This document shows positions 1-64,000 of a DNA stretch of 64,000 bases, one piece after another. The stretch covers positions 124,001-188,000 of the forward strand of contig JAXGZF010000007.1 of assembly GCA_040771865.1 (NCBI GenBank), in the 5' to 3' direction. The notes beneath the pieces are model-generated. The model had not been told where the DNA came from. It made no database searches and worked only from the letters and a program-made list of their open reading frames with translations. The translations under genes were made by a program, and so were the position numbers. The DNA comes from Desulfobacterales bacterium (lineage in GTDB: Bacteria; Desulfobacterota; Desulfobacteria; Desulfobacterales; UBA2245). Position 1 is the stretch's first letter; every line of letters begins with the position of its first letter.

Positions 1-155
1 CATCTTATCCCCCAAGCTGCGTATCAGTTCAAGAAACCTCGGATGGAGAGGTTATGAAAATTTCTTTATCACATTACGCGCATCCGCAAACAATATTTTG
101 ATGCATCCAACTCTTTTTCGAGCACTCCGGATTTTGTTCAAACCGTTTTGAATCA

Positions 156-2372
156 TCAGGCCTCGCTGAGTTCGAAAATCCCCTCGGGATCGAGAATCAA
201 CCCAATCTGGCCGTCTCCCATGATCGCCCCGCCGGAAACCCCTCGAAGATTCTTCAGACGCTCCCCGAGATTCTTGATCACCACCTCGGTTTTTCCGATA
301 ATCTCGTCGACCATCATGCATTTGGACTGACTTTCTCCGTCCACCACCAGCACAATGGCCTCCCATGGAACCATCCGCTCCGGCCGGATGTTGAAAAGCT
401 CGTACAATCGTACTAGCGGCATCAGGCGCCCCATGACATTGATGATCTCTCCCTTTCCGACGACGTTGGCATAGGCGCTCTCCTGAGGCCGAAACGCCTG
501 GCGTATGGCGGAGGTCGGCAGAATATATCTTTCCGGTCCGATCTTGACGATCATTCCATCGATAATAGCCATGGTCAACGGAAAACTCGTCACCAGGGTT
601 GTGCCTTTCCCCGGAGCGCTTTCAATTTCGATCTTGCCCCTTAACTTTTCAACGGCCTGTTTGACCACGTCCATGCCCACGCCCCGGCCGGATACATCGG
701 TGATCTTCTCGGCCGTGGACAGGCCGGGCATTAGGATCAGCCGGAACACATCCTGATCCGACATTCCCTCATCATTTTCAATGAGGCCGTTTTTAATGGC
801 TTTATTCAGAATTTTTGTCCGGTCCAGCCCCTTTCCGTCATCAACGATCTCAATGACGACATTGCCGCCCCGGTGATAGGCTTTGAGCTGGATCAACCCC
901 TTTTCCGGTTTGCCTTGTTTAATACGCTCGGCAGCGGGTTCGATTCCGTGGTCCACGGAATTTCGAATCATATGCACCAGAGGGTTGTAGATTTCATCCA
1001 CCATGTTGCGGTCGATTTCCGTTTCCTCGCCTTCCATTTCCACGGCGATCTGCTTGCCCGTACTTTTGGCAAGGTCTCTGACCAGGCGCGACATTCTCTG
1101 AAAGGTCTGCTTGATGGGAACCATTCTCAGCCCGGTGGAAAGCCGCTGCAGACCCGAGGTGATTCGGAAGAACTGGGCGATGTCCCGCGTCAGATTGCGG
1201 TCGACGGTCAGCTGGTTCTTGATGTCCTGCTGAATCATCGACTGGGTGATCACCAGTTCGCCCACCATGTCGATCATATCATCAAGTTTCTGCGTGTCCA
1301 CCCGAATCGTCGAAGTATCCGTAATCTGGGCTGTCTGCTTTCGAAGAGCCTGGGAAACCTGTCTGGGCGTAACCTTGCCCTCGCCGATCAGAGCCTCGCC
1401 CAGCTTTTTGGGAGGATCGCCCTTGGCGGCCTTCAAGCCTTGTTCAAGAATTTCGGGCGTAATCGCCCCATCATCAATAAGAATCTCGCCAAGCTTTTTC
1501 CCGGTCGGCAGATCATTCTGACGAACCTTGTTAATGCGCGCCATCAGAGCCTTGATATCAAGATCCAGGGCCTGCGCCGGCGAACCGGCCAATCGATCCT
1601 TCAACTGGCCGATCAGCATCTTCAACGCATCGGCGCCGTCCAGAACCACGTCAATGACCGGCGGCGTAACCTGAAGCTGATCGTTCCGGGCGTCATCCAG
1701 AAGGTTTTCCAGATTATGCGCCAGATCGCGGATGGTTTCCAGATTCAGAAAGCTCGCAACTCCCTTCATCGAATGAAATGGACGGAATATGGTATTGATA
1801 TAGTCCTTATTGCCCGGCTCCTGCTCCAGGTTCAGGATATTGACCTCAATTTCCTCTATATATTCGAGGCCTTCGGAAATAAAATCTTTCAAGAGGGACT
1901 CATCCTGAATTTCGGCCTCCTGCGGCGGCGAAACCGGCTGGTCTGACTTTGAATCCGAGCTTTGAAGAGCTTCCGGCGGGGACTGATCCCCAACCTGAGA
2001 GCCTTCGACAGAAATCGGCGCACCTGAAATCGCGGAAGCCGCCTCCAGAAAATCCTGAATGCTTCCGGTATATTCACCGGAATTCTGAAAACTGTCGGCA
2101 ATCCGCTGCATCAGGGAAATTCCGCTTTCGATCTGTTTAAACGCATCTTCCTTGGAATCGACGGCATCGAGAATAAATTTTTCCAGAATATGCCCCATTG
2201 CCCGGGCCGTCTGAATCAGAAGTGGAATATCAAAATTCTGCGCCTCCTGAGTCACCTCGTCAAGCTGGTTGAGAAATTTTCCGGAAGTGGGAATATCCAG
2301 TTTCTGGCCGTCGAGAAACAAAAAATCCGACGCCATTCCATTGAGTTTGTTGATCAAGGAATCAATTTGCAT
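156..2372 (-). CDS. cheA: Chemotaxis histidine kinase CheA with internal MshEN-like repeat
   Basis: Hpt motif FRPFHSMKG, dimerisation region IRVDTQKLDDMIDMVGELVI, HATPase motifs (RNSVDHGIE, DDGKG, SGRGVGMDVV), C-terminal CheW domain. Confidence 0.97.
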   Translation of the reverse strand: MQIDSLINKLNGMASDFLFLDGQKLDIPTSGKFLNQLDEVTQEAQNFDIPLLIQTARAMGHILEKFILDAVDSKEDAFKQIESGISLMQRIADSFQNSGEYTGSIQDFLEAASAISGAPISVEGSQVGDQSPPEALQSSDSKSDQPVSPPQEAEIQDESLLKDFISEGLEYIEEIEVNILNLEQEPGNKDYINTIFRPFHSMKGVASFLNLETIRDLAHNLENLLDDARNDQLQVTPPVIDVVLDGADALKMLIGQLKDRLAGSPAQALDLDIKALMARINKVRQNDLPTGKKLGEILIDDGAITPEILEQGLKAAKGDPPKKLGEALIGEGKVTPRQVSQALRKQTAQITDTSTIRVDTQKLDDMIDMVGELVITQSMIQQDIKNQLTVDRNLTRDIAQFFRITSGLQRLSTGLRMVPIKQTFQRMSRLVRDLAKSTGKQIAVEMEGEETEIDRNMVDEIYNPLVHMIRNSVDHGIEPAAERIKQGKPEKGLIQLKAYHRGGNVVIEIVDDGKGLDRTKILNKAIKNGLIENDEGMSDQDVFRLILMPGLSTAEKITDVSGRGVGMDVVKQAVEKLRGKIEIESAPGKGTTLVTSFPLTMAIIDGMIVKIGPERYILPTSAIRQAFRPQESAYANVVGKGEIINVMGRLMPLVRLYELFNIRPERMVPWEAIVLVVDGESQSKCMMVDEIIGKTEVVIKNLGERLKNLRGVSGGAIMGDGQIGLILDPEGIFELSEA

Positions 2373-2374
2373 AA

Positions 2375-3451
<1,077 letters not shown>

Positions 3452-3961
3452 CTAACGTCCATCTTGAACATAAGGATACCAGTCTCCCTTGCGAAGGGTG
3501 TTGACCTTGTACACGATCGCCTCGTTTTTCAAGGTATTATAGACAATCTTTCTTCCCATGGTACCGCCCACGTCCTCGGATATGGTTCGAATCCGGTTTT
3601 TGTTTAAGACCGATCTGGCTACGGCTATGTTTTCCCGAGCGACTTTCATGCATGCAGCCGAACTGTCGGATGCGCCCCCAAAAATCTGTGCGTACATATC
3701 CTTGTTGCGACTTCCTTCCTGTTGAAACATCCGGATCATGTGCTCAAGCGCCGCGTTGCCGTATTGAGATGTGGCTTTTTCAGACTCCGAAAAGCGCGGA
3801 TACAAGTAATTCGCCATGCCGCCGCATTGATTTCTGCTGTCCCAGAAAGATACCGCCACACAGGATCCCAGAACCGTGGATATTAGATGCGGCGTGCGGG
3901 TCAGAAAAATATAGCCGGGCATCAAAAAATATTCAGCCAGCTGAATATTGCTTTCGCTCAT
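3452..3961 (-). CDS. cheD: CheD-family paralogue, catalytic His apparently replaced
   Basis: STVLGSCVAV, IFGGA and EDVGGTMGRKI motifs; GGMANY where GGMxHF is usual. Confidence 0.85.
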   Translation of the reverse strand: MSESNIQLAEYFLMPGYIFLTRTPHLISTVLGSCVAVSFWDSRNQCGGMANYLYPRFSESEKATSQYGNAALEHMIRMFQQEGSRNKDMYAQIFGGASDSSAACMKVARENIAVARSVLNKNRIRTISEDVGGTMGRKIVYNTLKNEAIVYKVNTLRKGDWYPYVQDGR

Positions 3962-4413
3962 TTCACGGCGTCTTCTTCCTGAAAAGTCAAAATACAGGAA
4001 AATCCCTCGCCATCCGACTCAAAACCCGCTGCAATCGAACAATCTGAATCCGGTACCGTCTGAATCTGCCCGGTTTTTTTTGACAGCTGAGGCAGGCCCA
4101 GATCAAATACCCGATCGGCGTCAAATTTTCGCAGAAAATTGCCGCAAATCATATTGGCGGACTCCTTGAGGCAATCCTCCACAATCACCGGGTTGATTTC
4201 ATCCGGTTCCAGATTAAGCATGTTCATCGCCATGGTCCGGGCAAAATTTTCGGGGAAAAAGAATTGCATCTGACCGTCTCGAGGCCCCCTGAATGAAATC
4301 TGCGCGGCCATATCATAATGTCCGCCGATCTGGACCTGTTCCAGAAAAATGTAGAACATTTTTTCAAACACCTCAAAAATCGAGGTCACCCACACCTGTT
4401 TCGTCCTGTCCAT
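3958..4413 (-). CDS. cheX: CheX/CheC-like chemotaxis phosphatase
   Basis: DCLKESANMICGNFL (ExxN motif); lies inside the che operon. Confidence 0.75.
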   Translation of the reverse strand: MDRTKQVWVTSIFEVFEKMFYIFLEQVQIGGHYDMAAQISFRGPRDGQMQFFFPENFARTMAMNMLNLEPDEINPVIVEDCLKESANMICGNFLRKFDADRVFDLGLPQLSKKTGQIQTVPDSDCSIAAGFESDGEGFSCILTFQEEDAVK

Positions 4414-4804
4414 AGGCTCCGTCTTTACTCATTCCCAGAACCTCGTAAAGCGTGCTTCGAAGTTCTTCGGGTTGAAAGGGTTTTTTGATAAATCCTTTGG
4501 CGCCGTGGCTCAAAGCCTCCTGCATCCGCTCGTCGCTGCCTTCGGTCGTAATGATGATCACGGGAATTTCCTTATACAGATCATCGGCCTGCATGGCTTT
4601 TAGCAGCTCCAGTCCGTTGACTTCGGGCATATTGATGTCGGAAATGATCACATCCACCCAGTTTTTCTTGAGTATTTCCAGCGCTTCTCTTCCGTTGGAC
4701 GCCTCATAGCAATGATCCATTTTAAATCCTGAAATCGTAGCAATCTTTTTGATTACCGCCCGCATGGCACCGGAATCATCAACGATCATGATGTTGCAAG
4801 ACAT
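4373..4804 (-). CDS. cheY: CheY-like single-domain response regulator
   Basis: IMIVDDS, ISDINMP, ITTEG, KKPF motifs. Confidence 0.9.
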   Translation of the reverse strand: MSCNIMIVDDSGAMRAVIKKIATISGFKMDHCYEASNGREALEILKKNWVDVIISDINMPEVNGLELLKAMQADDLYKEIPVIIITTEGSDERMQEALSHGAKGFIKKPFQPEELRSTLYEVLGMSKDGAYGQDETGVGDLDF

Positions 4805-4830
4805 ATTAACCTCTCGGGTTGCCGGTAATT

Positions 4831-5679
4831 TTATTCAATATTTACAAGTCCTCTGGCGGCCTCTAATTGATCTGTCAACTCGACAATGCTTTCTTCGACA
4901 TCCCGCATTCGAAGATTAAACTTCTCAATGACCTCGCCGAGTCCCCGGTAGGCCAGGCCGTCCTCTCCGACCCCGATTCCCGTCATCAGACAGATTTGGT
5001 CGGAAAGATAAACCAGCCAGGGAATGGTCTTGTTTTCCTTTTCCAGCAGATCGGGCCGGTGATGAAAAGCGATGGCCTCCATGATGTCTTCCGGAAATTT
5101 CCAATGTTCGGCAATGCGCCGCCCCGCCTCGGCGTGATTGATTCCAATGAGTTGCTCCTCGGCTTCCAGGAAAGAACGCCCGTGATGGATGACCAGTTCC
5201 ATGACTTTCTGAAAAGATTCGCCGACGAACTCTCCCATGACCAGTTTTCCAACATCGTGCAGCAGGGCCGCCGTATATAATTGAGGATTTCTGCGCCGAT
5301 ACAGTTTCTGAAACAGGATTTGCGACATCAGGGCAACCGCCACGGAATGCTCCCAGAGCTGAATCCCGGTCGGCACATATCCCTTGACCGGCCCGTGGTA
5401 AAATTTTGAAATTCCCGCGGTTCGGACCGCACGGATGATGTTTTCCTGTCCCAGATAGGTTACGGCGTCCATGATGGAACGAATGGGCTGCCTGACGCCA
5501 AAATAAGCCGAGTTGCTCATCTTGAGGATCTGAGCCGCGATGGCCTGATCCAGTTCGATCACCCGCGCGAGTTGGGCGGCCGAATAGTCCCCGGAACTGA
5601 TCAGTTCTTCGACCTTCCTCACAGTCGCCGGAAAAGCCGGAATCCTTTCAATGGTTTGAAGGATCTTATCAAGCATCAC
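4831..5679 (-). CDS. HDOD domain protein
   Basis: IPAFP, ILKMSNSAYF, LWEHSVAVA, AALLHDVGKL, INHAEAG, WKFP, AIAFHH. Confidence 0.92.
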   Translation of the reverse strand: MMLDKILQTIERIPAFPATVRKVEELISSGDYSAAQLARVIELDQAIAAQILKMSNSAYFGVRQPIRSIMDAVTYLGQENIIRAVRTAGISKFYHGPVKGYVPTGIQLWEHSVAVALMSQILFQKLYRRRNPQLYTAALLHDVGKLVMGEFVGESFQKVMELVIHHGRSFLEAEEQLIGINHAEAGRRIAEHWKFPEDIMEAIAFHHRPDLLEKENKTIPWLVYLSDQICLMTGIGVGEDGLAYRGLGEVIEKFNLRMRDVEESIVELTDQLEAARGLVNIE

Positions 5680-57192: not shown

Positions 57193-58269
57193 ATGAAAAT
57201 CTTTACTTTAAAATTGATCCCCGGAGACGGCATCGGCAAGGAAGTGATGTCTGCGGCCCGAAAGGTGCTGGGCCGGATCGAACGGCTCGGCGGCGACCTG
57301 CGCTTCGAACTTCAGGAACTGGACTGGGGCTGCCAATACTATCTTCGCCGCGGGCGCATGATGCCCGAAGACGGACTGAGCATCCTGTCGGACTGCGACT
57401 GCATTCTGCTGGGTGCCATCGGCTTTCCGGGCGTTCCGGACCATATTTCTCTCCGGGGCCTTCTGCTGCCGATCCGGCAGGGATTCGACCAGTACGTCAA
57501 CCTTCGGCCGATCCGGTTTTTTGAAGGCCTGAACTCTCCCCTGAAGCTGTCCGACAGCAAGGACATCGATTTTGTCGTGATTCGCGAAAACTCCGAGGGC
57601 GAATACTGCGGCGCCGGCAGAATCGAGTACAAAAGCACGCCGGATGAAACAGCCGTCCAGGAAGCGCGGTTTTCCCTGAAAGGAACCGAGCGCATCATCC
57701 GCTATGCCTTCGAATACGCAAAGAACCATCAGCTTCCGAGCCTGATCAGCGCGACCAAATCCAATGCCCTGAACTACTCCATGGTGTTCTGGGACAGCAT
57801 ATTCGAGCGGATCAGGACCCAGTATCCGACCGTCGAGGCGCAAAGCATTCATGTCGACGCCCTGGCCGGCCTGTTCATCCTCAATCCGAAAAAACTGAAG
57901 GTGGTGGTGGCCAGCAATCTGTTCGGAGACATTCTCACGGACCTGGGATCGGCCATGCTGGGAAGCATCGGCATCTCTCCTTCGGCCAATCTGAATCCCG
58001 AGAAGAAATATCCCAGCATGTTCGAACCCATCCACGGCTCGGCCCCGGACATCGCCGGAAAGGGCATCGCCAACCCGATCGGCATGATCTGGTCGATCAT
58101 TCTGATGCTCCAGCATCTGGGCCTCGACCGGATCTCCGAAATGCTCACACAAGCCATGGCCCAAGTGATTTGCGAAAAAAAGGTCCGTACACCGGACATG
58201 GGAGGAAACCAAGGGACAGATCAGGTCGTCGACGCCGTGTGCGGAAAGCTCACAAAAATTTGGGGATAA
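57193..58269 (+). CDS. Tartrate/D-malate dehydrogenase (isocitrate/isopropylmalate dehydrogenase family)
   Basis: IPGDGIGKEV, FDQYVNLRP, RENSEGEY, SATKSN, SNLFGDILTDL, SMFEPIHGSAPDIAGKGIANP. Confidence 0.88.
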   Translation: MKIFTLKLIPGDGIGKEVMSAARKVLGRIERLGGDLRFELQELDWGCQYYLRRGRMMPEDGLSILSDCDCILLGAIGFPGVPDHISLRGLLLPIRQGFDQYVNLRPIRFFEGLNSPLKLSDSKDIDFVVIRENSEGEYCGAGRIEYKSTPDETAVQEARFSLKGTERIIRYAFEYAKNHQLPSLISATKSNALNYSMVFWDSIFERIRTQYPTVEAQSIHVDALAGLFILNPKKLKVVVASNLFGDILTDLGSAMLGSIGISPSANLNPEKKYPSMFEPIHGSAPDIAGKGIANPIGMIWSIILMLQHLGLDRISEMLTQAMAQVICEKKVRTPDMGGNQGTDQVVDAVCGKLTKIWG

Positions 58270-58349
58270 AAAAGGAAACCAATGCGCTTGCAGGAACGCA
58301 TTTCGCTGAATCCGGAGATCTGGAGCATCGAAAAAGTGTTTTCACCTCA

Positions 58350-58682
58350 TCAAAAACGTTTTGGCGGTCGAGGATTGCAGCAACTCCGAAGTAAATAGAA
58401 CTCCCGCCCATAATTCAAGGTCATCCAAAGGACTCGAAACCCCTGCCCGCCTTGCTGAAGAACATGGGTACAGATCATGATGGTGAGATGAACTGCAAGA
58501 TGGGTCAAAAATGATTCAATCTTTTTCTCATCGTCTGCAAGATCATCCCGCGATTTCATATTGTGAAAATGAACGAATTTCCTTATCCATGCGCAATAAG
58601 ACCTTTCCGTATGGATTGAATAATGCCTCAACCGCATGACATCCCGCACCTCATCCAATAATTTCCTATCTGTTGTTGACAT
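58350..58682 (-). pseudogene. intI: Integron integrase pseudogene with internal deletion
   Basis: IntI N-terminal domain (KLLDEVRDVMRLRHYSIHTERSYCAWI..FLTHLAV) fused directly to the C-terminal TIMICTHVLQQGGQG; SSPLDDL is readable in another frame; catalytic domain absent. Confidence 0.9.
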
Positions 58683-58760
58683 ATCGCATAAAATAAGATT
58701 TTAAGAATTGAAGATTCGATGCATCGCGGAATTATAAAATAGCAATAACAATCGATTTTT

Positions 58761-58779
58761 GACCAATCAATGGTTGGCT
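58761..58779 (+). other. attI recombination site
   Basis: GACCAAT-CAATG-GTTGGCT upstream of the divergent intI; GTTGGCT is the exact reverse complement of the R'' (AGCCAAC) of the first attC. Confidence 0.8.
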
Positions 58780-58807
58780 TGTCCTGTTAATCACAGCTGG
58801 GGAGTCG

Positions 58808-59440
58808 ATGGTGATTGTTTATGTTCTAATAGTCGGTGCTATTGTGGGCGCCCTGTTGTTTTTCAGATCTCGAAAACAGGGCAAAAGGTCGCCTGTCCTC
58901 CGAGAGAAACTTCTATCAGAAAGGAGTATTGGCGGAGTCGTCAAGATGCAAGTGGTAGAACAACTGATCGACACCAATCAGGTGAGACAGCTAAATGCTG
59001 TGAAACTTCTTGCCAAGATAGGCAAACCGCAAACATTAGAACAGAATTTAATAACAAGAGATCCGACGGGTTTCATATACTTTGCGACGTTCTACGATGC
59101 CAGAATTCGATATGGCGAAACGAAACCGGAATATGTTAGGGAAGAAGATCACTATAGACGCCGCTATGAGGAAGCGCATTCGTATGGACTGGCTCTTAGA
59201 GGAAATGAAATACCCACTTTAGACATTCTCCGGTTTTTGCGACTGAGAAAGGAGCTAAATCAACTTTCGGACAGGAGTTTCACTCGTATCAAAGACGCAG
59301 TTGAGTATCTATCGCAGTTGCCTGATATTGATCAGCGTCTAGACCAATTCACGCCAAGAAAGAACTATTTCCAGCTCAAAAACATCAATCTTGATATGGC
59401 GTACCTGAACCGCCAATGGGAAATCATTGATAAGACTTGA
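58808..59440 (+). CDS. Cassette 1: membrane-anchored hypothetical protein
   Basis: N-terminal hydrophobic helix followed by basic residues; GGGAG RBS; bounded by attI and attC. Confidence 0.8.
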   Translation: MVIVYVLIVGAIVGALLFFRSRKQGKRSPVLREKLLSERSIGGVVKMQVVEQLIDTNQVRQLNAVKLLAKIGKPQTLEQNLITRDPTGFIYFATFYDARIRYGETKPEYVREEDHYRRRYEEAHSYGLALRGNEIPTLDILRFLRLRKELNQLSDRSFTRIKDAVEYLSQLPDIDQRLDQFTPRKNYFQLKNINLDMAYLNRQWEIIDKT

Positions 59441-59455
59441 CACTTCAAGAGAAGC

Positions 59456-59515
59456 AGCCAACAACCGCTCCAACTCGACCGGATAAAGCACCGGCGGGTT
59501 AAGCGCGCGTTAGGC
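59456..59515 (+). other. attC site (60 bp)
   Basis: AGCCAAC...AACTCGACCGG-ataaagca-CCGGCGGGTT...GTTAGGC imperfect hairpin just after the stop codon. Confidence 0.88.
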
Positions 59516-59562
59516 TATTGCTCCTCGTTCGCTCGCGCAGGTTTAAAAATGAAAGTTAATCA

Positions 59563-60843
59563 ATGAATATCGACGACTGGATAAAAATTCACAAAACGAA
59601 TTTCGGCAGCAGTTTTGAGGAGATGTTCGTCATCAAAGTGCTGGCCAAGGTCAACGACATCGACCTGAACACGGTCAGCACTCAGTATCAGTTCAAGGAT
59701 CTAGACGGTAAAAACCGGTATTGCGACTTTGTCATCCAAGAGGGTTCAATAAAAATCGCGATCGAGATTGATGGCTACGACAAGCGAAACACCGGCCAAG
59801 GAATGAGCCACGATGATTTTGTTGACTGGCAACGAAGACAGGCTGCTCTTACGGCATACGGCTGGCATGTGCTTCGCTTTGCCAACAGAGATGTAAGTAA
59901 CGAGCCGAGTCGTTGTAAACGCTACATCGAACTACTATTGAGAGACCAGCGTAACAAAAGCCTGCATCAAGCCAGCATAGAAGAGGATATTGAACGCTTG
60001 AGTTATCGGCTGAAGATTGCCCAGAGCGGAGCCGGCGCTGCAGAACAGGCCGGCAAATTGCAACAAGAAATTAGTATTCTGAAAAAACAACTTAAACTTG
60101 CGCAAGACGCCAAGCCACTCACTTCCAGCGATAAAAACGAGCTGGAGAAGATGGTGGCCAGATTGGAACAAGAAAAACAGGAGCTAAAGGTCACGCACGA
60201 CAAAATAAAAGAAGAAAAAGAACATCTAACGGCCTCCAACACACAACTGGAAAGCCAGAAACAGGTTTTGGGTGGAGAAAACAATACAATGAAAACGACA
60301 ATTTGGGCGTTTGCGACCATAATCAGTATTTTGATTTTGGCGGGTGTCTATGTATTCAGTGGCGCCAACAATGTACAGCAAGCCAATCCTAAAAGCGCGC
60401 AGACGATTACGCCAATTGACGTCAATACCTCTACACCCAAGGCGCAAATACAGGCATCTCAGCCAGCGCCTCAAGTGACTCAGCAGGTTTATTCCCAAGC
60501 ACTAAATCAAGCCGCGTCAACATCCGCGCCATCATGCGATTCTTCCATCGATTGGCGTCTGGCTAAAAATTATGTGGGCCAGCGCGTTGCCGTGCGCGGC
60601 ACTGTAGCGGAATACCGCTATCTGGTGAACGGGAAGGGCAGACCCACCTGGATTAGTCTCGGCGCAAAATATCCTGTCGAGAATCGGCTATCGGTGGTAG
60701 TTTGGGGTGATGATCGCAGTAAATTTGGTCGCGCACTTTCGGAAAATCTGGTCAACCGCCAAATCTGCGTCACCGGCGTGATCAAATTGTATGACGGCAC
60801 TCCACAAATCACCCTGAAATGGCCGCAGAATTTGGTGTTTTAG
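59563..60843 (+). CDS. PD-(D/E)xK-like (DUF559/Vsr) nuclease - coiled coil - TM - OB-fold protein
   Basis: RYCDFVI..IAIEIDG..RRQAALTAYGWHVLRF; heptad-rich middle; TM IWAFATIISILILAGVYVF; C-terminal AKNYVGQRVAVRGTV...ICVTGVIKLYDGTPQI. Confidence 0.78.
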   Translation: MNIDDWIKIHKTNFGSSFEEMFVIKVLAKVNDIDLNTVSTQYQFKDLDGKNRYCDFVIQEGSIKIAIEIDGYDKRNTGQGMSHDDFVDWQRRQAALTAYGWHVLRFANRDVSNEPSRCKRYIELLLRDQRNKSLHQASIEEDIERLSYRLKIAQSGAGAAEQAGKLQQEISILKKQLKLAQDAKPLTSSDKNELEKMVARLEQEKQELKVTHDKIKEEKEHLTASNTQLESQKQVLGGENNTMKTTIWAFATIISILILAGVYVFSGANNVQQANPKSAQTITPIDVNTSTPKAQIQASQPAPQVTQQVYSQALNQAASTSAPSCDSSIDWRLAKNYVGQRVAVRGTVAEYRYLVNGKGRPTWISLGAKYPVENRLSVVVWGDDRSKFGRALSENLVNRQICVTGVIKLYDGTPQITLKWPQNLVF

Positions 60844-61060
60844 TAGCGATTGTTGCGCTATGACTTTTTAAGTTATTAAATCATTTATTTATATGTTGTC
60901 TCGCCGTACGGGTCAAAATGCACAAGATACAAGACCAAATGTGGTAGGGCAGATGAGTGAATTAATAAATGAATTCCCAGGCAAAGACATCCGAAACAGA
61001 TAAAAGGAAGTATAGTTTATTAGATAAAAACGGAGCTCAAATTTAGATGGTCTTGTTTCG

Positions 61061-61078
61061 CTATCAATGAATTGATAG
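61061..61078. promoter_or_regulatory. Operator-like palindrome
   Basis: CTATCAAT-GA-ATTGATAG about 40 bp upstream of the next start codon. Confidence 0.45.
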
Positions 61079-61118
61079 ATACATGTTTAATCATCAAAAA
61101 CTCGAATGGAGGCTTGTT

Positions 61119-61676
61119 ATGAACTTGTTCCAAAAAGCTGGACTGGTTTCATTAATGATCTTATTATCAATAGCCATTTGTCCATTTCTATCTTATGCCG
61201 ACTCGCTTAAAGATGCTTATAAGGCTCTAAAAAAAATCGAGATGCAGGCGGAATCAGGACCTGACAGGAGAACTTATCGGGACTTGGTCGTTGATGCCAA
61301 GACAGAGATTGAATTGTTACCTGAAACGGGTGACATAACCTGCATATCACATTTAAAAAGGGCCTCGTATGCTTATGAAATAATAAATGAAATTTGGCAA
61401 TCTATGCAGGTGAGCCGAGCAACAAACATTAGTGCTGGGTGTGTGCCTGTAGCTAAATATGATGCGTGGCTGAAAGAATTTCCGGCCTTACTTACTTGGA
61501 AATGGGGTAAAACAGGTGTTGGTGTTGATCCAACAAACGAAGCGAAATCTCCATCTTTTGACTGCTGTATAATAGATATGATAAGTTTTGAAATGGCTTG
61601 TGCACCTTGCCTTTTCAATGAAGCAAGTTTAGAGCTGAACCTCGCGAAACAGTGTCTCAAGAATAGACTGGAATAG
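61119..61676 (+). CDS. Secreted cysteine-rich hypothetical protein
   Basis: GGAGG RBS, signal peptide ending SYA-D, several Cys residues. Confidence 0.7.
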   Translation: MNLFQKAGLVSLMILLSIAICPFLSYADSLKDAYKALKKIEMQAESGPDRRTYRDLVVDAKTEIELLPETGDITCISHLKRASYAYEIINEIWQSMQVSRATNISAGCVPVAKYDAWLKEFPALLTWKWGKTGVGVDPTNEAKSPSFDCCIIDMISFEMACAPCLFNEASLELNLAKQCLKNRLE

Positions 61677-61706
61677 CATCACTAAAATAGTGTGTAGAAA
61701 CTGGGT

Positions 61707-62456
61707 ATGAATGTGAGATGGACAAGGAAGACGAGTGGACAGAAGTTCAAGATTCAGGGGAACTTACCTTCGCCAGTATTCAGAGCCTATGAGCATCAGC
61801 AGTATTCGGCTGACTTCGCGGAACGCGGACATATTCGATTGGGCTCTTTGCTTTCATACAGGAATATAGAAAATCTTGGGCGTCGAGACACTTCCGAAGG
61901 TGAGCCAAAGCTCCGGATTCCGTCCGATGTAACAACGATTTTCCTGGAAAACAAGACTCTGAAACGCATCGGTGAATCTGTTGCCCCGGGCTATCTCAAC
62001 TATTCCGGTTCTTTCCACAATCCTCTATACGCCTTTTGTGTCGCAGATTCCACGGTCCATCATGATCACCTTCGAAGGCAGTTCGGATGCCATATAGTTG
62101 AGATTTTCAACACGACTGCCTTCCTTGTAGAATTTAAGAATTCACTTAGCAGACTTCAACTTCCTGATCGTGAAGTATTGTTTGTGGATAGTTGCTCAGT
62201 CCGATATGATAAGGGTGAAATTGGGGAGTACCCAACGGACGATCATGATCGGATATACTATACACAAAAACCACCAGATTTTGCGTCAGATTGCGAATGG
62301 AGGGTAGTTATAGCCCTGGCAGGTCCGCTCAAGGAAGCACCTAAAGAGCTATTCCTCGACCTTGCGAATCCGAAACTATTCTGCCGACAGATGTCCATTT
62401 ATCAAAACCCTGCACCAACTGCGCAAACAGCAAGCGCCAATGGGGTTTTGCCTTGA
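61707..62456 (+). CDS. Hypothetical protein, DUF2971-like
   Basis: GHIRLG..YRNIE..RRD..EG, LYAFC, FG..IVEI, VRYD, K..F...CEWR pattern. Confidence 0.6.
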   Translation: MNVRWTRKTSGQKFKIQGNLPSPVFRAYEHQQYSADFAERGHIRLGSLLSYRNIENLGRRDTSEGEPKLRIPSDVTTIFLENKTLKRIGESVAPGYLNYSGSFHNPLYAFCVADSTVHHDHLRRQFGCHIVEIFNTTAFLVEFKNSLSRLQLPDREVLFVDSCSVRYDKGEIGEYPTDDHDRIYYTQKPPDFASDCEWRVVIALAGPLKEAPKELFLDLANPKLFCRQMSIYQNPAPTAQTASANGVLP

Positions 62457-62526
62457 CAGGCATCTTGGGGACTTTAATTATCTAAATAACTTGAACGATT
62501 CCCCTGTCTGAGGTATTTGAAAACCT

Positions 62527-62682
62527 ATGCCAAGATCAGCCGGATTTGATGCGCCCGGGATTCTGCACCACGTGATAATCCGGGGAATTGAACGCCAGGA
62601 CATTTTCCGAAATAAAGCGGACAAGGAAGATTTTGTCGACCGGTTGTCTAAGCTTGTCCCCGAAACCCCGCACTTTACTTAA
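62527..62682 (+). pseudogene. Truncated REP-associated tyrosine (RAYT/Y1) transposase, N-terminal 51 aa
   Basis: Translated by hand, not in the ORF track: MPRSAGFDAPGILHHVIIRGIERQDIFRNKADKEDFVDRLSKLVPETPHFT*; stops before the HUH motif. Confidence 0.82.
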
Positions 62683-62689
62683 TATCATC

Positions 62690-62727
62690 TTATCAGGGCA
62701 AATTGACCTGATAATCAATGGTTATGC
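62690..62727 (+). other. Second attI-like site with overlapping palindrome
   Basis: TGATAAT-CAATG-GTTATGC shares AATCAATGGTT with the first attI; GTTATG is complementary to R'' CATAAC of the next attC; TTATCAGG-N9-CCTGATAA palindrome at 62690-62714. Confidence 0.62.
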
Positions 62728-62740
62728 ATAGTAAATAATT

Positions 62741-63574
62741 ATGAAGTGTGACAATCCAAGGATATTTGTAGATACGGCAATTATAAGATACGCGGCAAGT
62801 GTAAAACTTGTTCAATCTGCCAAATTGGAAGAAGGAACCATTACTTCGAAAAATGGAGAAAGCAGAGGTGCAACGTTTCTTGTCTACAAAAATGAAGTTA
62901 AAGAACCAAATAAATCCGACATAAGTCTTGAAAGAGAAATATCTGCCATAAGAAAAATTGCAGAATTAGCCCTTAACGGAAAAATAGGTCTCTTTTATTC
63001 GCATGAAGTAAATTTAGAATTGTTGTTTCAGCCAGAAGTTGATTTGGCATTTGGAAGAATGATGGGAGCACCTTGTCACATTGTTCATTCTCCGCTTCTG
63101 AAAATGACACCGGAAAACTTTAACGAGAGTGATGAGTCTGAATTTCCATTTAAGTTTTGGGGAAGCGACACAGCTAATGATGATAGTAATGTTTATGAAA
63201 AGATAAAGAATGAATTTTTTAGGCTTCCAGTTGGCTGCTTCCATTCAAGACTAAAATTTAAATCCGGTATTATTGGGCTTCGGGAAACTCATGGGTTAAA
63301 CGTAAATGCATCGAGATTCATGTTCCCATTTCTTGAGTTAATTGACAACATAAGGTTTAAGGAAATATTAAAGATACTTAATGTTGGTTCTGTTCGTGAT
63401 GAAAAGAAGAGAAATAATCTTTACATAGACGCTTATCACTTATGGTCCGCAGAGGAGTCAAAATGTGAATATTTTCTTACAACAGATGGACCTTTGCTTA
63501 ATCAGTTCAAGGGTAGTGTCACTGAAGCTATTAACCCGACCAATTTGCTGGCTTTGTTAATGAACCGAGTATGA
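62741..63574 (+). CDS. Cassette gene: expanded PIN-like nuclease domain protein
   Basis: N-terminal IFVDT, mid SHEVNLE, C-terminal DAYHLWSAEESKCEYFLTTD. Confidence 0.68.
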   Translation: MKCDNPRIFVDTAIIRYAASVKLVQSAKLEEGTITSKNGESRGATFLVYKNEVKEPNKSDISLEREISAIRKIAELALNGKIGLFYSHEVNLELLFQPEVDLAFGRMMGAPCHIVHSPLLKMTPENFNESDESEFPFKFWGSDTANDDSNVYEKIKNEFFRLPVGCFHSRLKFKSGIIGLRETHGLNVNASRFMFPFLELIDNIRFKEILKILNVGSVRDEKKRNNLYIDAYHLWSAEESKCEYFLTTDGPLLNQFKGSVTEAINPTNLLALLMNRV

Positions 63575-63590
63575 ATAAATACAGTAAAGC

Positions 63591-63665
63591 TCATAACACG
63601 GCGCTAAACCCGGCCACCCAAAGTGCTGACGCACTTTGGGTGGCCGGGTTAGCTGAGCGTTATAC
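63591..63665 (+). other. attC site (75 bp)
   Basis: TCATAAC-acggcgcta-AACCCGGCCACCCAAAGTGC-tgac-GCACTTTGGGTGGCCGGGTT-agctgagc-GTTATAC. Confidence 0.93.
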
Positions 63666-63682
63666 GGGGGAAAGACTCACGC

Positions 63683-64000
63683 ATGAAATGGGAACTGAAG
63701 GAACTCGAAGATGCTGTTCGTGACGTCCACGGTGACCAGTACGCGGACGCAATCCACGAACCCCTTCAATCGTTTAGCTGGAAGAGCGATATGGCCAACT
63801 TCCACGCATGTGAAGCCGAACAAATCCTCAAAGAGGCTATCGTCGCTACGCCAAAAATCAACGATCACGACCCACCTGCGATCTCCACTGCCAAGGCAGT
63901 GATGTTGGCTGCGGCACCTGGTGACGCCGGGCAACACTTGCGTTTAGCACGATTCAAAGCAGAAGCTCATATAATCGCCTCTGCGCAAGCTCTGCATTCA
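63683..64000 (+). CDS. Next cassette gene, partial (runs off the window); helical hypothetical protein
   Basis: Open frame MKWELKELEDAVRDVHG...RFKAEAHIIASAQALHS starting 18 bp after the attC; not in the ORF track because it has no stop in the window. Confidence 0.72.
   Translation, partial: MKWELKELEDAVRDVHGDQYADAIHEPLQSFSWKSDMANFHACEAEQILKEAIVATPKINDHDPPAISTAKAVMLAAAPGDAGQHLRLARFKAEAHIIASAQALHS

Follow-up and report, generated by a model that had tools for sequence, protein, structure and literature searches.

What is the role of a protein that carries a nuclease-like domain at one end, a membrane helix in the middle and a putative ligand-binding domain at the other end? The question is raised by a gene at 59563..60843 in a 64,000-nucleotide stretch (hereafter the window) of contig JAXGZF010000007.1, from a Desulfobacterales bacterium. 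An earlier note, made from the sequence alone, had described the gene product as integron cargo and as a candidate for a new defence system, in which an OB fold outside the membrane senses incoming DNA or a phage component and activates a cytoplasmic nuclease through coiled-coil oligomerisation. The identities of the domains, the topology of the protein and the family-wide conservation of a candidate active site are established here computationally. The family is uncharacterised, all of its members bearing generic names. By analogy with SNIPE of Escherichia coli, to which it is unrelated, the protein may be a constitutive dimer whose nuclease is kept just beneath the inner membrane and there cuts DNA on its way in, a reading whose chances we put slightly short of even.

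The open reading frame (ORF) is intact, with an ATG start and 426 codons followed by a stop codon, and is judged to be full length because most of its best 45 homologue matches cover 100% of the query. An AlphaFold2 model of the whole protein, built on an alignment of 96 sequences, is confident (mean pLDDT 85.3). In it, residues 1-130 form an alpha-beta-beta-beta-alpha-beta domain and helices follow at 133-155, 160-182 and 188-266; residues 267-319 have a pLDDT below 50, and residues 320-426 make up a beta-barrel with one helix. A search of PDB sequences with the whole protein returned only coiled-coil and transmembrane noise. The features of the gene, with the evidence for each, are as follows.

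59563..60843, + strand: whole single-pass membrane protein, comprising DUF559 nuclease, coiled coil, transmembrane helix, linker and OB fold (ORF, Pfam, homologues, AlphaFold2)
59563..59952, + strand: putative cytoplasmic Vsr/DUF559-type PD-(D/E)xK nuclease domain, residues 1-130 (Pfam, invariant residues, AlphaFold2, BFVD)
59953..60294, + strand: helical stalk, residues 131-244 (AlphaFold2 helices, homodimer model)
60295..60360, + strand: single transmembrane helix, residues 245-266, N-in/C-out (hydrophobicity peak, positive-inside rule)
60361..60519, + strand: disordered, Q/P/A/T-rich periplasmic linker, residues 267-319 (pLDDT below 50)
60520..60840, + strand: extracytoplasmic OB-fold domain, residues 320-426, with the cysteine pair C325/C402 (AlphaFold2, Foldseek, relatives)

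The succession read earlier from the translation, of about 110 residues of coiled coil, one transmembrane helix, a disordered linker and a C-terminal OB fold, is thus borne out by the AlphaFold2 model, the hydrophobicity profile, the pLDDT values and the Foldseek matches.

The sequence of the N-terminal domain makes it a member of DUF559. Residues 54-122 match the Pfam family DUF559 (PF04480) at E=2.4e-5, with 24.6 bits against a gathering cut-off of 20.6, and there is a sub-threshold Pfam match of the same domain to the related REase_MTES_1575. DUF559 is also matched at E<=1e-3 by 84 of the 96 aligned homologues. In the AlphaFold2 model the core elements (helix 17-25, strands 38-45, 51-60 and 63-70, helix 83-98 and strand 102-107) occur in restriction-endonuclease-like order. 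Nine residues are invariant across the 96 sequences, namely D55, E68, D70, G71, K74, R92, R105, F106 and N108; D55 lies on the second strand of the model, and E68 and D70 on the third. The candidate active site consists of D55, E68, D70 and K74, with R91/R92 on the next helix, the roles of the individual residues being our own assignment. In BFVD, a library of viral protein structures, the matches to this domain are named DUF559, Vsr, DUF2726, restriction enzyme or homing endonuclease, and a survey of the PD-(D/E)XK superfamily files DUF559 together with Vsr in its Table 1 (PMC3424549). The domain is the best conserved part of the protein, with a mean identity to the focal residue of 0.64, followed by the transmembrane helix and the OB fold (0.44 each), the stalk (0.28) and the linker, which is lowest (0.13). 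The Pfam score above the cut-off, the invariant residues, the order of the strands and the BFVD matches all agree with the earlier assignment of a Vsr-like PD-(D/E)xK domain, a putative nuclease.

At the other end of the protein, residues 318-426 modelled alone (109 amino acids) gave an AlphaFold2 pLDDT of 93.8. The elements of this model are strands at 24-36, 45-49, 59-63, 83-93 and 96-101, with a helix at 65-75 between strands 3 and 4. Foldseek comparison of it with the PDB gave 106 matches at E<=1e-3, with TM-scores on the query of 0.49-0.63; all are OB folds among the matches listed, of the kind that binds nucleic acid, and they include the anticodon-binding domains of class IIb aminoacyl-tRNA synthetases, Teb1, Stn1, PolD and a Klebsiella 'nucleic acid-binding lipoprotein' (3f1z). 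A match of the OB profile to carbonic anhydrase among PDB sequences (E=0.37) was dismissed as noise. The focal protein has no Pfam match to tRNA_anti-codon (PF01336); homologues match that family below threshold, with one of the 96 reaching E=4e-5, and distant relatives found with the OB-domain profile score 86-97 bits for it, against a cut-off of 27. Judged by its predicted structure, then, the C-terminal domain is an OB fold, which only its more distant relatives tie to PF01336. Its two cysteines, C325 and C402, do not vary in 18 sequences and are kept in at least 90% of the 96; they may form a disulfide, which would fit a periplasmic location.

The OB domain represents a large uncharacterised family of surface domains. 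In a set of 1.84 billion, its profile matches 3374 representative proteins at E<=1e-3, and the sample examined comprised 135 additional proteins out of 150 listed of these 3374. The DUF559 motif pattern is present in 25 of the 135 and not in the other 110, several of which are fragments of the focal family. Since a hydrophobic segment stands at the N-terminus in 75 of the 110, and a lipobox-like motif occurs in 41, the OB domain is an extracytoplasmic family. It occurs in three to four copies fused to secreted PLD-type nucleases (P0166 and P0167), in up to seven tandem copies outside a transmembrane Ser/Thr kinase (P0236, 1102 amino acids) and beside a CHAT protease (P0126, 727 amino acids), and relatives of it are also fused to TonB_C and SH3/Excalibur proteins. 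The OB domain of the focal protein itself is strongly basic (pI 9.8, net charge +7), and basic OB domains are found in 10 of 18 family members.

The transmembrane helix spans approximately residues 245-266, with a peak Kyte-Doolittle 19-mer score of 2.39 at residue 247. Lysine and arginine are more numerous on its N-terminal flank, as the positive-inside rule requires for an N-in/C-out protein, in 87 of the 96 homologues; there are nine ties and no reversed case. No signal-like segment was found at the N-terminus, where the highest Kyte-Doolittle 12-mer score within the first 40 residues is 1.27. An N-in/C-out topology, with the nuclease domain in the cytoplasm and the OB fold outside, is therefore well supported. 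The earlier note had assumed such a two-sided arrangement and had named a location of both domains on the same side as fatal to its model; on this point the flanking charges, the lack of a signal peptide and the extracytoplasmic character of the OB family all speak for two sides. The linker from the end of the helix to the first OB cysteine measures 22-136 residues across homologues (median 47). Just ahead of the helix stands a nearly invariant motif, M-K-T-T-I-W-A-F (residues 243-250, window 60289-60312), of which M243 and K244 are kept in at least 90% of the sequences. Several database proteins of 150-190 amino acids (P0127, P0144 and P0147) start exactly at the equivalent of M243 and consist only of transmembrane helix, linker and OB fold; they could reflect incomplete gene calls, genes that are split, or an isoform with an internal start.

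The stalk that separates the nuclease domain from the membrane varies between 28 and 158 residues across 93 homologues (median 91). A homodimer prediction for residues 1-270 gave an ipSAE of 0.50 (0.37, 0.50 and 0.57 in three runs), compared with 0.00 for the best control, with contact agreement between runs of at least 61% and a partner pLDDT of at least 73. When the dimer tool was calibrated, 20 of 30 proteins solved as one-chain pairs attained the mark, as did one of 23 solved as single chains; these counts are only rough because our own alignment was used. The predicted interface is a parallel, in-register, two-stranded coiled coil with heptad-like contacts, running from about residue 194 through the transmembrane helix to residue 261, and the model also pairs the two nuclease domains through direct contacts. 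A constitutive homodimer is thus supported by the model, though not demonstrated by it. The activation through coiled-coil oligomerisation that had been proposed finds no echo here, where the modelled dimer is constitutive and in register, and nothing indicates that dimerisation is induced by a signal.

Altogether 184 homologues were found at E<=1e-3, nearly all with the same architecture, each encoded by a single gene for about 320-500 amino acids. Their hosts are mostly Proteobacteria (among them Oceanisphaera, Pseudomonas, Melaminivora, Nitrosomonas, genera of the Halomonas group, Luteimonas, Wenzhouxiangella, Polaromonas, Oligella and Halothiobacillus), with more distant forms in Myxococcota and Actinomycetota. 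They are named 'hypothetical', 'DUF559 domain-containing' or, automatically, 'very-short-patch-repair endonuclease', and nothing else; two of them carry a precomputed PF28159 assignment. Among 72,556 plasmid records five hold a family match, two of these near full length, and there is none among 50,697 phage records. In BFVD there is one match that resembles a full-length member, on a contig of an uncultured podovirus (E=2.4e-21).

The earlier note did not recognise the architecture as a named system, and no named system emerged here either. No model of PADLOC-DB v2.0.0 covers the focal nuclease or the OB fold. Weak matches to JetC, LmuB and DndD (E=1.8e-5 to 3e-3) are confined to the coiled-coil region and represent coiled-coil noise, and there is a further weak match, to a type II methyltransferase, at residues 30-92 (E=0.0089). 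A search of the literature on DUF559, Vsr-like and OB-fold or periplasmic nucleases in connection with defence or transmembrane proteins found no description of such an architecture.

The genomic surroundings of the family were studied at 23 annotated loci (numbered with the prefix L) of 30 fetched, most homologues stemming from short metagenome contigs that lie outside this set; neighbours were taken within three genes on either side, and defence neighbours were called by PADLOC models at E<=1e-8. All-against-all BLAST of these neighbours revealed no conserved partner gene beyond close relatives, so the gene stands alone. Of the genes beside the focal one in the window, none but a transposase fragment has a homologue at the 30 loci. 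Defence genes, known or candidate, occur at six of the 23 loci: a type I R subunit and McrBC at L001, a McrBC-like gene and HEC-01 at L002, Cas10 at L003, a CBASS cyclase and 2TM effector at L007, PDC-S41 and Mrr at L008, and SoFic and Mrr at L016. A further locus, L005, was left out of the count because its sole match is a TnpB that hits Cas12f models. Two plasmid copies add to this picture. One (L032, 271-6908) lies between hsdS and hsdR of a type I restriction-modification operon, together with two other hypothetical genes; the other (L031, on pPNAP01, 56-5444) is cargo of a GmtY/VPA1269/GmtX (gamma-mobile-trio, GMT) island, beside AbiEi/AbiEii. The part of the GMT report drawn on here describes these islands as rich in defence cargo (bioRxiv 10.1101/2023.03.28.534373). 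GAPS1, a PD-(D/E)xK defence protein of such islands, was considered as a relative and set aside, no link to the focal protein being seen, because in the available part of its description the domain lies toward the C-terminus and neither a membrane segment nor an OB fold is mentioned. A defence-type neighbourhood, as anticipated in the earlier note, is therefore real at these six loci and in both plasmid copies, but it is confined to a minority.

A second association is a new observation, namely a recurrent link to nuclease genes, mostly secreted. Such genes lie within three genes of the family member at eight of the 23 loci, and on pPNAP01, and represent about six independent lineages. They encode Endonuclease_NS at L005 (two copies), at L012 (two copies, one of them 20 bp downstream on the same strand), at L017 and on pPNAP01; SNase at L007, 33 bp downstream on the same strand; and EEP nucleases at L011, L014 and L015, where the genes are convergent and syntenic in three Pseudomonas species, and at position -3 in L016. 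Most have signal peptides or membrane anchors, the EEP nuclease of L016 being without. In the L017 homologue the OB fold is replaced by a small cysteine-rich domain, which also ends a secreted EEP nuclease of Pseudomonas (34% identity over 85 amino acids, E=6e-6); the copy of this domain at L011 shows a weak, sub-threshold likeness to the Ada zinc-binding domain (E=7e-4). The EEP neighbours in Pseudomonas had clustered with the family, and a shared OB domain was considered as the reason, but BLAST shows no match of these neighbours to the focal protein, and their actual link to the family is the alternative C-terminal domain of the L017 variant. As a separate observation, at L007 (8001-9611) and L012 (7983-9961), where the secreted nuclease gene follows 20-33 bp downstream, the family member has an acidic OB domain (pI 4.7 and 4.6, respectively), which at these loci may bind the neighbouring nuclease rather than DNA.

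These properties can be brought together in a model by analogy with SNIPE. Two Vsr/DUF559-type nuclease domains would hang just under the inner membrane on a parallel coiled-coil stalk; both helices would continue through the membrane, and flexible linkers would then carry two periplasmic OB folds. The assembly would serve as a barrier against incoming foreign DNA, whether from phage, plasmid or transformation. On the periplasmic side of the inner membrane, its OB folds would dock on the DNA or on the machinery through which it enters; the paired nuclease domains would thereby lie at the point of exit of the DNA and cleave it there; and the membrane tether would keep the nuclease off the chromosome. 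In many genomes a non-specific nuclease, secreted or periplasmic and encoded by a neighbouring gene, would add an outer layer to this barrier. Putative elements of this model are the nuclease activity, what the OB fold binds, the DNA target and the defence phenotype. The more ambitious proposition that the family constitutes a new kind of single-gene, two-compartment immune protein, in which periplasmic recognition of DNA or of the entry machinery is coupled to a paired Vsr-type nuclease and which often forms the inner layer of a two-layer barrier, is doubtful.

Several findings weigh against such a barrier, and they bear on its rivals as well. Run against PDB sequences, the nuclease profile hit designed repeat proteins, while 3hrl, a DUF559 structure, was matched only marginally (E=0.18), and Foldseek comparison of the full-length model with the PDB gave OB-fold matches only, among the matches listed. 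The motif on the third strand is E-x-D with a later lysine, not a classical (D/E)xK; because of this departure, we infer catalytic competence from conservation alone. An inactive domain or a role outside defence, for example as a membrane anchor for chromosomal or plasmid DNA or as a membrane-bound Vsr-like repair nickase, would suit this unusual motif and the merely marginal sequence similarity to solved DUF559/Vsr structures, and some members of the PD-(D/E)XK superfamily do have non-nuclease functions, according to the part of the survey consulted here (PMC3424549). It is nevertheless highly improbable, given that the candidate catalytic residues, acidic and basic alike, do not vary across 96 sequences of what is the most conserved domain, that the distribution of the family is accessory and patchy, and that repair gives no reason for a periplasmic domain. 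A different difficulty concerns the OB fold, whose ligand need not be DNA, because the same domain decorates kinases, CHAT proteases and TonB_C proteins; moreover, eight of the 18 family OB domains have a pI of 8.0 or less, some as low as 4.6-4.7. These facts favour what is the main rival, and the one closest to the model of the earlier note and to the logic of Zorya: a suicide nuclease of the abortive-infection type triggered at the envelope, in which the OB fold would detect a breach signal other than DNA (a phage protein, a piece of the cell wall or an oligosaccharide), the coiled coil would relay it, and the nuclease would be set free on any DNA, that of the host included. The occurrence of the same domain on the outside of signalling proteins (P0236 and P0126) would then be natural, as would its varied charge, and the long, variable stalk recalls the signal-carrying tail of ZorA as described in the portion of the Zorya study used here (PMC11946911); the defence-island context applies equally to both readings. 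We regard this alternative as unlikely, however, since the dimer is predicted to be constitutive with its nuclease domains already paired, no switch element is visible, and both the link to secreted nucleases and the domain swap at L017 would be left unexplained.

The genomic context is likewise open to another reading. At 16 of the 23 loci there is no PADLOC match at all within three genes (17 if the excluded L005 is counted), the window's own neighbours are without a defence match (the first four of five low-GC ORFs were run against PADLOC), and the three Pseudomonas species keep the family gene among metabolic genes, at a conserved locus and not in an island. Phage DNA, furthermore, normally crosses the periplasm inside a conduit, and for this reason sensing of DNA in the periplasm suits transformation better than phage injection. 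The protein could instead be an accessory in the processing of extracellular DNA, for scavenging, competence or biofilm DNA, its OB fold holding DNA or oligonucleotides released by the neighbouring nuclease and its DUF559 domain processing imported fragments or only binding or regulating. The Endonuclease_NS, SNase or EEP genes at eight of the 23 loci and on pPNAP01, two of them with operon-like spacing, fit such a role, as do the signal peptides or anchors that most of these nucleases bear and the synteny beside an EEP nuclease among metabolic genes in Pseudomonas. Extracellular nucleases bearing an OB fold are also on record, Xds being an example in the part of that report relied on here (PMC6746945). 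Yet this role is distinctly unlikely: no conserved uptake channel or transporter lies nearby at the annotated homologue loci, a conserved active site in a cytoplasmic nuclease has no obvious use in scavenging, and the patchy spread over distant taxa, together with the island and plasmid sites, looks like that of accessory conflict genes. The reading preferred here, on balance, is still that of a tethered nuclease which would cut DNA as it enters the cell.

The immediate surroundings of the focal gene bear on the claim that it is integron cargo and starts right after an attC site ending in GTTAGGC. Three features matter here.

58350..58682, - strand: intI remnant, divergent from the cassettes, only its N-terminal SAM-like part recognisable (TIGR02249, Pfam)
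59456..59516, no strand assigned: candidate attC-like imperfect hairpin of the preceding cassette, 61 nucleotides (fold, shuffle z-scores)
60843..60871, + strand: terminator-like hairpin with a trailing T run, which overlaps the stop codon (consensus match only)

The intI remnant matches TIGR02249 at positions 1-56 of 315, with 53.4 bits against a cut-off of 265, and Pfam Phage_int_SAM_4 at E=7.6e-14. Its divergent orientation is that expected of an integron integrase. The adjacent Iso_dh gene (57193..58269) ends at 58269, so that there is no room for a full integrase. The approximately 45 residues that follow the position-56 match contain a THVL..GG.G-like stretch and resemble the extreme C-terminus of tyrosine recombinases; this 3' piece is not recognised by Pfam. 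If the likeness holds, the catalytic core of the integrase would have been lost through a large internal deletion. The hairpin at 59456-59516 ends in a perfect GTTAGGC (59509-59515), 47 nucleotides ahead of the ATG, and its shuffle z-scores are -2.1 to -3.9, but its 5' core, AGCCAAC, fits RYYYAAC at six of seven positions only. A start right after an attC site is therefore plausible but unproven. A core-pair scan found no strict R''/R' attC pair anywhere in 58301-64000. No promoter-like site was found between the hairpin and the ATG, as expected of a cassette, and there is no attC-like site downstream of the gene in 60844-61082 (240 bp, AT-rich). The next hairpin, at 63607-63650, lies four ORFs beyond the focal gene and is not a typical attC. 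It is a perfect 20-bp inverted repeat with a 4-nucleotide loop (z about -10), flanked by CTAAAC and GTTAGC, loosely attC-like yet with neither bulges nor an unpaired spacer; conceivable identities are a degenerate attC, a REP-like element and a terminator.

The G+C content drops right after the Iso_dh gene, from about 56-60% to 36-48% (58400-64000); at the intI remnant the fall is from about 56% to about 42%. None of the five low-GC ORFs checked in this stretch (58808..59440, 61083..61676, 61707..62456, 62741..63574 and 63683..end) matches a Pfam family; in the first two, a transmembrane or signal-like segment stands at the N-terminus. A further ORF of 51 amino acids (62527-62682, + strand), which looks like a truncated N-terminus of a Y1 transposase of the IS200/REP-associated (RayT) type, also has no Pfam match, and its weak tblastn relative lies in L022 (37.5% identity over 40 amino acids, E=4.7e-4). 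The low-GC stretch is an island of unknown genes that runs past the end of the window. As for the homologues, no integrase occurs within three genes at any of the 23 annotated loci, and the intI fragment of the window has no tblastn match in any of the 30. What remains of the proposed integron origin, then, is an intI remnant and one attC-like hairpin, with no attC after the gene and no integrase beside its homologues: the focal gene lies in a decayed integron-like island, and the family is not integron cargo as a rule.

If the protein does act at the site of DNA entry, it would be a second, independently evolved membrane-tethered nuclease that tells foreign DNA by its location and not by its identity, and its defined periplasmic domain would lend itself to exchange or engineering. 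The principle of SNIPE would then extend to an unrelated nuclease fold and a folded periplasmic receptor, and possibly to transformation and conjugation in addition to phage. The recurrent pairing with secreted nucleases points to a layered control of DNA entry, which bears on natural transformation, the spread of plasmids and phage defence. The OB domain occurs in 3374 representative proteins, with kinases, CHAT proteases and secreted nucleases among its users, so that identifying its ligand would advance the annotation of many proteins in one step.

Among known systems, the closest in layout is SNIPE, which, in the parts of its description used here, is a single-pass inner-membrane GIY-YIG nuclease of E. 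coli that cleaves phage lambda DNA during injection and becomes toxic once its transmembrane segment is removed (PMC13190303). According to the same material, each is a single polypeptide with a single-pass inner-membrane anchor and a cytoplasmic nuclease; the short or variable extracytoplasmic part of SNIPE is proposed as an adapter, and its logic is to cut at entry, with the tether preventing self-damage (PMC13190303). The two are not homologous, the focal nuclease being of the PD-(D/E)xK/Vsr type and that of SNIPE of the GIY-YIG type, and Pfam finds neither DUF4041 nor GIY-YIG in the focal protein at E<=0.1, so that it is an analogue of SNIPE and not a member. Their orientation is also reversed, with the nuclease N-terminal and the C-terminus outside in the focal protein, whereas the N-terminus of SNIPE is outside. 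The focal protein adds a long coiled coil, predicted to be dimeric, and a folded periplasmic OB domain. The function of SNIPE, finally, has been shown experimentally, whereas for the focal protein we infer it.

To our knowledge, the characterised Vsr, DUF559 and DUF2726 proteins are soluble repair or homing enzymes. The clade that they form (PF04480 and PF03852; PDB 1cw0, 3hrl and 3r3p) shares the N-terminal domain of the focal protein, as far as the relevant part of the superfamily survey goes (PMC3424549). The membrane anchor, the coiled coil and the periplasmic OB fold belong to the focal protein and fall outside the description of that clade.

Zorya, as presented in the portion of its description available to us, similarly combines a periplasmic binding domain, a membrane part, a long cytoplasmic coiled coil and a nuclease directed against invading DNA, but it does so in a multi-protein, ion-driven 5:2 motor (ZorAB) with separate soluble effectors, ZorC and ZorD (PMC11946911). 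The focal protein, in contrast, is a single chain with one transmembrane helix per subunit, no motor and a directly fused nuclease, and in PADLOC it has no Zor match, hence no sequence relationship with Zorya. Epona, one of the nuclease-transmembrane fusions in chromosomal integron cassettes of Vibrio, is likewise a small cassette-borne fusion of a restriction-endonuclease-like domain to a membrane domain, with a validated anti-phage function; in the sections of the preprint drawn on here, it joins Mrr_cat to a holin-like domain with two transmembrane segments and has neither a coiled coil nor an OB fold (bioRxiv 10.1101/2024.07.02.601686). The terms DUF559, Vsr and OB-fold are absent from that preprint. 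For the OB fold itself, parallels in the respective parts of two further reports are ComEC, in which an outward-facing OB fold at or near the inner membrane contacts entering single-stranded DNA (PMC12663950), and Xds, an extracellular nuclease with an OB fold (PMC6746945). The focal protein has no ComEC channel or competence domain, and the similarity to both is at the level of the fold only. The focal protein is thus a member of neither SNIPE nor Zorya and at most works like them.

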